A stretch of 64,000 bases of DNA from an uncultured Candidatus Binatia bacterium (GTDB lineage: Bacteria; Desulfobacterota; Binatia; Bin18). The stretch lies in NCBI GenBank assembly GCA_965200965.1, contig OZ241744.1, positions 2,464,001 through 2,528,000 on the forward strand, in the 5' to 3' direction. Position numbers and translations under genes: made by a program. The notes under the pieces are model-generated. The model was not told where the DNA came from. It worked only from the letters and a program-made list of their open reading frames with translations, and made no database searches. This document shows positions 49,722 through 50,292 of the stretch, piece after piece. Each line of letters starts with the position of its first letter. Positions within the stretch are counted from its first letter, which is position 1.

Positions 49722-50292
49722 ACGCTACGCCAAAGCCCTGCTCAGCCTGGCCCAAGAGGCCGGACAAGAGGAGGCCATCGGGGCCGAACTCAAACACATT
49801 AGCGCTATACTGGTCGAGCCCAGCCTGGCCCAGATCATGGCGCTCCCAACCCTGTCGCCTAAAACACGGAGTGATATTGTCGAGAGCCTGATCCGCGCCG
49901 CCGCGCCACACGCGCTGGTGGCCAACTTTCTGCGCGTCCTGGCCGTCAACGATCGTCTGAATACGGTAGCCGATATTGAGAGCGGCTATCAAGTGCTGCT
50001 CGAAAAACTGCTGGGGCGGGTGAGAGTCAAGGTCAAATCGGCTTCCGAGTTGTCCAGGGACGAGATCCAAGCCATTGTTGACGCCTTCAGTCAGAAGATA
50101 GAGAAGACTGTCATCCCAATCCTCGAGATTGAGCCTGAGTTGTTGGGTGGGGTGACAGTTGAAATTGAGGGCCGGGTATACGACGCCAGCCTTAAGACCC
50201 AACTCCAACGCCTCAACCAGTCATTGGCCCAAAGACGAATCGCCTTGAGCGGTCGAGAGGAAGACAAGACGAATCGTCTTCAGCGGCTGTAG
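49705..50292 (+). CDS. atpH: ATP synthase subunit delta (element-derived C-terminal extension)
   Basis: [24 protein letters not shown]. Confidence 0.93.
50231..50281 (+). mobile_element. Palindromic element copy 9 (atpH 3' end)
   Basis: AAAGACGAATCGCCTT-GAGCGGTCGAGAGGAAGAC-AAGACGAATCGTCTTC, 51 bp; a partial AAGAGGAAGAAAGACGAA follows near 50308. Confidence 0.92.

Follow-up and report, generated by a model that had tools for sequence, protein, structure and literature searches.

Short palindromes can enter protein-coding genes without encoding a transposase, and the question of how they do so is raised at a single locus by the atpH gene of an uncultured Candidatus Binatia bacterium. In the stretch of 64,000 nucleotides analysed here (the window), part of a genome (G000) represented by a single contig with 99.3% completeness, the gene for the delta subunit of the ATP synthase contains a hairpin close to its 3' end, with the following features.

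49681..50292, plus strand: host gene atpH, ATP synthase delta, with PF00213 over residues 13-182
50231..50281, plus strand: 51-bp hairpin element of subfamily A, in frame in atpH three codons ahead of the stop codon, adding 17 amino acids
50231..50246, plus strand: left arm, in which G50234 corresponds to the C at -4 of the 3' end on the minus strand
50247..50265, plus strand: purine-rich loop of 19 nt with a conserved GGAAG motif, as seen from per-position conservation
50266..50281, plus strand: right arm; T50277-C50278 stand at -5/-4 of the plus-strand 3' end
50285, minus strand: target C at -4, a G on the plus strand and the fourth base past the element

Since the AtpH homologues of the genus, with the exception of that of the nearest relative G007, stop at query residue 186 and the protein here ends at residue 203, 17 codons have been added to atpH by the insert; G007 itself carries a copy of the element without the left arm in its atpH. 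The self-complementarity of the arms, from which the original prediction had started, is readily confirmed at this copy with 7 of 7 self-pairs in the 15 nt at 50266-50280 and 6 of 7 at 50232-50246, and the two arms together form a long stem with 13 of 16 pairs. Both one long and two short hairpins, as had been envisaged, can be folded, but the two are not on a par as the long form is favoured (-9.9 versus -4.4 kcal/mol); for the atpH copy alone the fold is only modestly above shuffles (z -1.7 and -2.1). At position 50247 of the window, conspecific strain contigs show the A of the family consensus with a G here.

The atpH copy is one member of a large family. Iterated profile searches gave 119 hits at E<=0.1 in G000 versus none on the reversed genome, and the union over the search iterations amounts to 131 loci, which our own codon-model gene caller places within genes in 66 cases, across a gene end in 21 and in intergenic DNA in 44. 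The GC-skew minimum, at which the window lies, is at 2.48 Mb, and 75 of the 131 loci are found in the region of 2.2-3.0 Mb around it. As additional diverged hairpin subfamilies, 46-54 bp long, are present in which the ends are kept and the loops differ (at 2579993, 2610435, 2698996, 2441952, 2384729 and other positions of contig C1 of G000), the true copy number is above 131. The element can be described as a 51- or 54-bp hairpin with a 15-17-bp stem and a 19-22-nt loop (about 19 nt in the 51-nt form). The stem of the 97 full 51-nt copies joins positions 2-16 to positions 36-50, with 67-91% Watson-Crick pairs per position pair, GGAAG is highly conserved in the 19-nt loop, and bases of the inner arm and of the loop are conserved as well. 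The ends are paired (AAG/AGG...CTT/CCT), and CGTC occurs only within the stem of subfamily A. Position 4 in the left arm is a G in 93 of the 97 full copies and position 48 in the right arm a C in 92 of them.

That the arms co-vary, as had been proposed, is borne out, with the stem pairs 6-46, 7-45, 10-42 and 8-44 giving the highest APC-corrected mutual information. In an alignment of 43 sequences from five genomes the covariation score is 0.746 versus 0.234 +/- 0.018 in shuffles, a value inflated by the partial choice of the rows through a hairpin scan, and 13 of 15 stem pairs have changed on both sides. Mismatches in the stem reveal no strand preference, with G.T and A.C equally common (63 and 70), on which ground selection on the stem at the RNA level was dismissed. 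Self-palindromic arms, on the other hand, are not a trait of the family, but are confined to subfamily A, a minority of 24 among the 97 copies: at least 6 of 7 self-pairs are reached by only 5 left and 6 right arms of the 97 full copies, while 53 left and 55 right arms have at most 2. Genome-wide in G000, the strand of the loop is the strand of the gene in 64 of 87 gene-overlapping copies. Several copies are located just upstream of called starts, and the purine run in the loop is presumably Shine-Dalgarno-like.

The insertion of the element is clean and its stem covaries. Twenty-six copies of G000 could be aligned to an empty site in a relative, with a net insert of 51 bp in 19, 54 bp in four, and 47, 50 and 52 bp once each. 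A scan of 97 copies for target duplication found no combination of trim and length above chance, with none of the lengths of 1-9 bp enriched and no enrichment of 1-bp flank identity, and at sites in other Binatia likewise no duplication is enriched. The one exception, at 2749277 of G000 with a net insert of 53 bp, is compatible with a short duplication. As some copies in the relative G003 are symmetric over 52 bases with 51 bases added, one terminal base can be the host's. The absence of a target-site duplication reported for the flanks of gpsA, atpH and pgeF, which were quoted correctly, thus holds for the family in the 97-copy scan as well as in the comparisons of filled and empty sites, and the case of a consistent duplication combined with ends of a DDE insertion sequence did not occur in these comparisons. 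With no duplication and co-varying arms, the wider proposal of a non-autonomous hairpin element mobilised in trans is supported.

Twelve copies or remnants are found in the window, ten of them within annotated frames (gpsA, mnmE, mnmG, jag, yidC and pgeF among them); besides the atpH copy these are the following.

13244..13294, minus strand: 51-bp copy, inserted in frame into a GHMP kinase gene; site empty in G007
26761..26811, plus strand: 51-bp copy adjoining an APH-family kinase gene at its 5' end; missing from G007, without a clean junction
36001..36054, plus strand: 54-bp copy in an RNA methyltransferase ORF, within the part encoding the N-terminus; also present in G007
37496..37546, minus strand: 51-bp copy, in frame in pgeF; G003 and G006 have the empty site
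38597..38650, plus strand: 54-bp copy, in frame in gpsA; empty in G002, G003, G004 and G006
40305..40355, plus strand: degenerate copy, in frame in yidC; junctions not clean
40747..40776, plus strand: 30-bp internally deleted copy, in frame in yidC
42328..42360, plus strand: 33-bp remnant left by an internal deletion, in frame in jag; G007 has the 54-bp form, and in four relatives the site is empty
42766..42819, plus strand: 54-bp copy, in frame in mnmE; empty in G003, G004 and G006
45713..45766, plus strand: 54-bp copy, in frame in mnmG; empty in G003, G004 and G006
47607..47658, plus strand: degenerate copy at the 3' end of parA

At gpsA, mnmE, mnmG and jag the difference to the empty sites of relatives is exactly 54 bp, in the last case with respect to the copy of G007, as the jag copy of G000 is a 33-bp remnant; the mnmG copy, to correct its reading, starts with ACAGATG and not with AAAGATG. 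Copies are thus lineage-specific insertions of the whole unit, often in coding sequence and using several reading frames and both orientations, with in-frame insertion into genes as unrelated as gpsA, mnmE, mnmG, jag, pgeF, atpH and others at sites that are empty in relatives. The element has spread to nearby sites: copies less than 1 kb apart differ at 10.3 positions versus 17-18 beyond 20 kb, and the copy closest in sequence lies within 20 kb for 20 of 90 copies versus 3.4 by permutation. In pgeF of G007 (L032) the copy and 9 flanking bases are missing between short direct repeats, which suggests that this loss might have been a slippage deletion, and several other copies are internally deleted to a final length of 30-48 bp. 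An Rfam search of the window gave three tRNAs only.

The distribution of the element is narrow. A covariance model, with hit counts per genome taken as at-least values and both strands counted, detected it in all seven genomes of the same genus and two of three genomes of a second genus, with one weak hit elsewhere among 40 relatives, and in none of 150 genomes of the phylum, Rickettsia not being among them. A scan with an exact pattern gave at least 123 loci, the 80 listed of which are all in Candidatus Binatia or Binatota records save two in Thermodesulfobacteriota, and viral contigs contained no exact match to subfamily B. As the host has been found in sponge metagenomes, it is probably also host-associated, like Rickettsia. 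In sponge metagenomes and in metagenomes without a source label, contigs of conspecific strains run through the copies of the window without a gap of 51 or 54 bp, and no such gap was seen at nine younger copies among the matches listed, a comparison limited by assembled contigs dropping rare variants. The copies are thus fixed in conspecific strains, and a dedicated enzyme might possibly have been lost.

What most inserted copies have in common is the position of a single base: counted four bases in the 5' direction from the junction, at least one strand of the target has a C, and so do both 3' ends of the element itself. In a second set of 97 copies of G000, 51 or 54 bp long with near-complete ends, a C four bases left or a G four bases right of the junction is present in 90 copies, while a codon-phase-matched null, in which the junction is slid in steps of three, gives 50.6 +/- 4.8 with a maximum of 68 in 5000 draws. 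TC is found at -5/-4 of the target in 43 copies versus 11.3 expected in G000, and both sides carry the signal at +/-4 in only 21, an anticorrelation between left and right (odds ratio 0.13, p=1.6e-5). The empty sites of relatives already follow the rule, in 26 of 26 cases and, for a second, partly overlapping set, in 22 of 26. Equally, it was recovered in a genome of another genus, G024 (46 of 64 sites; null 29.9 +/- 3.9), and in other Candidatus Binatia genomes, where 46 of 54 de-duplicated sites, drawn from 74 of the 80 listed among at least 123 loci and a few of them perhaps orthologous to G024 sites, follow it (null 25.2 +/- 3.6); the anticorrelation at +/-4 is weaker in this Binatia replicate (p=0.06), and G003 provides a weaker replicate of the rule (22 of 30, p=0.01). 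Among control indels without a hairpin the rule is seen in 57 of 97, within the background of 43-59.

At the 3' ends of the element itself a C stands at -4 in 191 of 194, TC in 139 and TCNTT in 76 (mostly TCNTY), a conservation that is partly built in by the choice of full-length hits. The targets are not TCNTT, having a G at -2 in 30 of 69. The strand with the C shows no leading or lagging bias (36 to 33) and coincides with the template strand at 40 of 61 sites (p=0.02). Furthermore, both strands show a depletion of A at -6 (4 of 128 in G024, 4 of 108 in other Binatia, 16 of 194 in G000) and the side without the C at -4 favours G at -5 (35 of 69); these biases at -5 and -6 suggest a two-sided recognition. 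The state of the ends (A..C or G..T) does not convincingly track the target strand. The rule is precise and replicated, names a candidate enzyme and would be the fingerprint of some enzyme even if the candidate discussed in the following is false.

This candidate is topoisomerase I. The motif described for the Escherichia coli enzyme is TCNTTA/T, in which cleavage takes place four bases 3' of the C (PMC9352719), and selectivity for this C has been assigned to bacterial topoisomerase I and reverse gyrase but not to topoisomerase III, with the reading of the C resting on R169, R173 and Y177 (PMC3467081). G000 encodes one type IA topoisomerase, a TopA (TIGR01051), with R144, R148 and Y152 aligning to these three residues under an inferred numbering offset. 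Position of the C, match of the element ends to TCNTT and retention of the C-reading residues agree with the described specificity; different are the targets without TT, the extra two-sided bias and the role, as these papers describe the enzyme as a relaxase and not as a transposase (PMC9352719; PMC3467081). TopA of G006 (L134) and G004 (L150) contains a 22-residue insertion that is absent from G000, G007 and G002.

Type IA enzymes can rejoin a cleaved strand to a foreign 3' end and cause illegitimate recombination. On these grounds the element may, with a chance approaching even, be a non-autonomous hairpin resembling the Rickettsia palindromic elements (RPEs) that is moved as single-stranded DNA by the TopA of the host. 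Upon exposure of single-stranded DNA the stem would bring the two ends of the element together, TopA would cleave four bases 3' of the C at each end, and rejoining of the wrong partners would release the element, which the same chemistry could join into another site with a C at -4 before replication makes the inserted strand double-stranded. Either strand would be mobile as both 3' ends carry the signal, from which the independence of loop orientation and target strand would follow. Lengths of 17 or 18 codons would let copies survive in essential genes. Such a mechanism predicts the absence of a target-site duplication, no need for homology, insertion in either orientation and short-range spread, the last of which is seen.

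Several observations do not fit easily with TopA. The C at -4 is a signal of low information that another enzyme could share, the targets lack the TT of the E. coli motif, and the two-sided bias at -5 and -6 is not predicted by a pocket that reads one strand. The strand with the C is mostly the template and not the displaced coding strand; bases of the inner arm and the loop are conserved as if a protein existed that reads their sequence; TopA with its C-reading residues is alike in carriers and non-carriers; and with copies fixed in conspecific strains a dedicated enzyme could have acted and then been lost. The stronger formulation, a minimal selfish DNA without its own transposase that consists of TopA cleavage-site ends held together by a hairpin and hijacks the essential TopA for excision and insertion, is slightly less probable, and that the mechanism is categorically new is likewise put at somewhat below even. 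A literature search covering few subscription journals retrieved no paper on a hairpin element mobilised by a topoisomerase. If true, a housekeeping topoisomerase would serve as the transposase of a 51-base parasite that adds peptides of 17-18 residues to essential proteins, and the same logic could explain other palindromes in frame without an enzyme, such as RPEs and CGTC REPs.

Rather unlikely, yet the most serious competitor, is a dedicated single-strand transposase, a divergent HUH enzyme or a member of an unknown family, now lost or unrecognised, that moves the element by peel-and-paste and happens to prefer C at -4. Peel-and-paste transposition by IS200/IS605 has in common with the element that no target site is duplicated, that a hairpin is involved and that the same motif occurs at the element 3' end and 5' of the target junction. 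The missing duplication, the hairpin and the conserved loop and inner-arm bases would agree with such an enzyme, as would the restriction of the element to two genera and its fixation in present strains; CGTC REPs, too, are described as without a dedicated transposase, possibly by loss (PMC3733652). Against it, RAYT/Y1 transposases (PF01797) had no match in five element carriers that are 96-99% complete (G000, G007, G003, G004 and G005), no solo arm pair surrounds an enzyme gene in G000, and among the loci checked in G024 38 of 40 are a paired mini-element and only two a lone arm. Furthermore, the lineage-specific bursts in G000, G007, G003 and G024 would each need the enzyme. IS200/IS605 elements insert in a fixed orientation, while the loop here is independent of the C strand (33 to 36); equally different are the lack of a TnpA, a motif of 1-2 bases rather than 4-5, the apparent use of either strand and the absence of a lagging-strand bias.

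The search for other enzymes was equally unproductive. G000 had no match to IS110 (PF01548), DDE_Tnp_1 (PF01609, also without a match in G007) or resolvase (PF00239), and contains no dispersed multicopy insertion sequence. Its only two tyrosine recombinases, of about 320 aa, are probably XerC/D. The sole reverse transcriptase gene (L081:1048-2421) is split by an in-frame TAG, its second piece being weakly Drt2-like, and a retron origin is unsupported, with no element beside this gene save a weak half-arm 3 kb off. Of further candidates, the ORF between inverted copies at 81258 and 81604 of G000 turned out to be DCC1-like rather than a transposase, and a 1234-bp two-copy repeat proved to be tuf. 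Cutting by Cas9, considered as a type II CRISPR locus is present, would require a guide for each site and leave the element ends unexplained.

Improbable, though with some points in its favour, is cleavage of the target alone, by a symmetric nuclease, host-encoded or mobile, that cuts the degenerate palindrome B-K-C-NNN^NNN-G-M-V bluntly or by UvrC incision, followed by capture of a free hairpin in the course of repair. The incision made by UvrC falls 4-5 bonds to the 3' side of a lesion, and photoproducts form at TC. The two-sided bias at positions 5 and 6 and a template-strand bias that fits transcription-coupled repair speak for such cleavage, as does the only GIY-YIG match in G000 and G007 being an ORF of 659 aa, the size of UvrC; a small GIY-YIG nuclease is encoded only in G006 among the seven relatives of the genus and G024. 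Neither the presence of the same rule at the 3' ends of the element itself nor the release of the hairpin is explained by this, however, and the two sides are anticorrelated at +/-4. Element and target share no short core, not even the 2 bp on which serine recombinases or IS110 depend, with the crossover falling in the middle rather than at the edge of a 6-bp spacer.

Very improbable is the REPIN, two inverted palindromic REPs moved by a RAYT, as which the element had originally been viewed. The imperfectly palindromic arms of subfamily A, the folding of the whole as a hairpin and the local clustering of copies are reminiscent of REPINs, but most arms are not palindromic, the palindromic ones occur only in that subfamily with the long hairpin favoured, an unpaired GTAG or CGTC tag is missing, and with 66 of 131 copies inside called genes the element is not predominantly extragenic. 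Likewise, the expected HUH or RAYT enzyme has no support: in addition to the five carriers without PF01797, G000 and G007 among them, the RAYTs of G006 and G024 (L166:5120-5635 and L168), about 170 aa long and closely similar in genomes of different genera, are flanked by their own unrelated GTAG repeats, a situation that suggests a possible horizontal transfer. The REPIN reading is therefore largely refuted. GTAG and CGTC REPs and REPINs (PMC3733652; PMC3337134) are also short hairpins in local clusters, some of them intragenic, CGTC REPs equally without a known transposase, but have stems of 5-13 bp and an unpaired tetranucleotide tag, in contrast to the single 15-17-bp stem with a 19-22-nt loop, about half of the copies intragenic and no linked RAYT here. 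A MITE of the ordinary type, moved by a DDE insertion sequence, is just as improbable. The terminal inverted repeats of 15-17 bp and the symmetric ends speak in its favour, but no target site is duplicated, the arms change with compensation, DDE_Tnp_1, the DDE family searched, had no match in G000 and G007, and G000 contains no multicopy insertion sequence. Paired operator sites of a dimeric DNA-binding protein, offered as an alternative for the palindromic arms of subfamily A, are to be rejected, the comparison of filled and empty sites refuting them as an origin, in view of lineage-specific insertions of a whole unit, mostly in coding sequence, and arms that change freely in sequence with pairing kept.

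By its architecture and its in-frame insertion the element behaves like the RPEs, which are palindromic repeats in frame in unrelated housekeeping genes (PMC10969869). RPEs are about 150 bp long, the element with its 51-54 bp thus being a third of their size; several frames and both orientations are used here, therefore no single conserved peptide is produced, and a junction rule is defined here.

A few other features of the window and the genome deserve mention. Two palindromes at 46726-46776 of the window, just upstream of parA and also present in G003 and G007, are taken by us to be parS-like. A Sel1-repeat gene with nine tandem units of 108 bp is located at 57599-59125 of the window, and tandem paralogous genes 2128 bp apart and 71-80% identical occupy positions 26948-28519 and 29076-30647. 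Type II Cas1/Cas2 genes lie beside a 21-copy array (L172:4400-7000), with two more CRISPR-like arrays at 2819949-2833402 and 3369578-3372045 of contig C1 of G000, and long arrays of paralogous genes of 2.4-3.3 kb, with segments repeated up to 26 times, extend over positions 271736-305552 and about 1130772-1159005 of the same contig.
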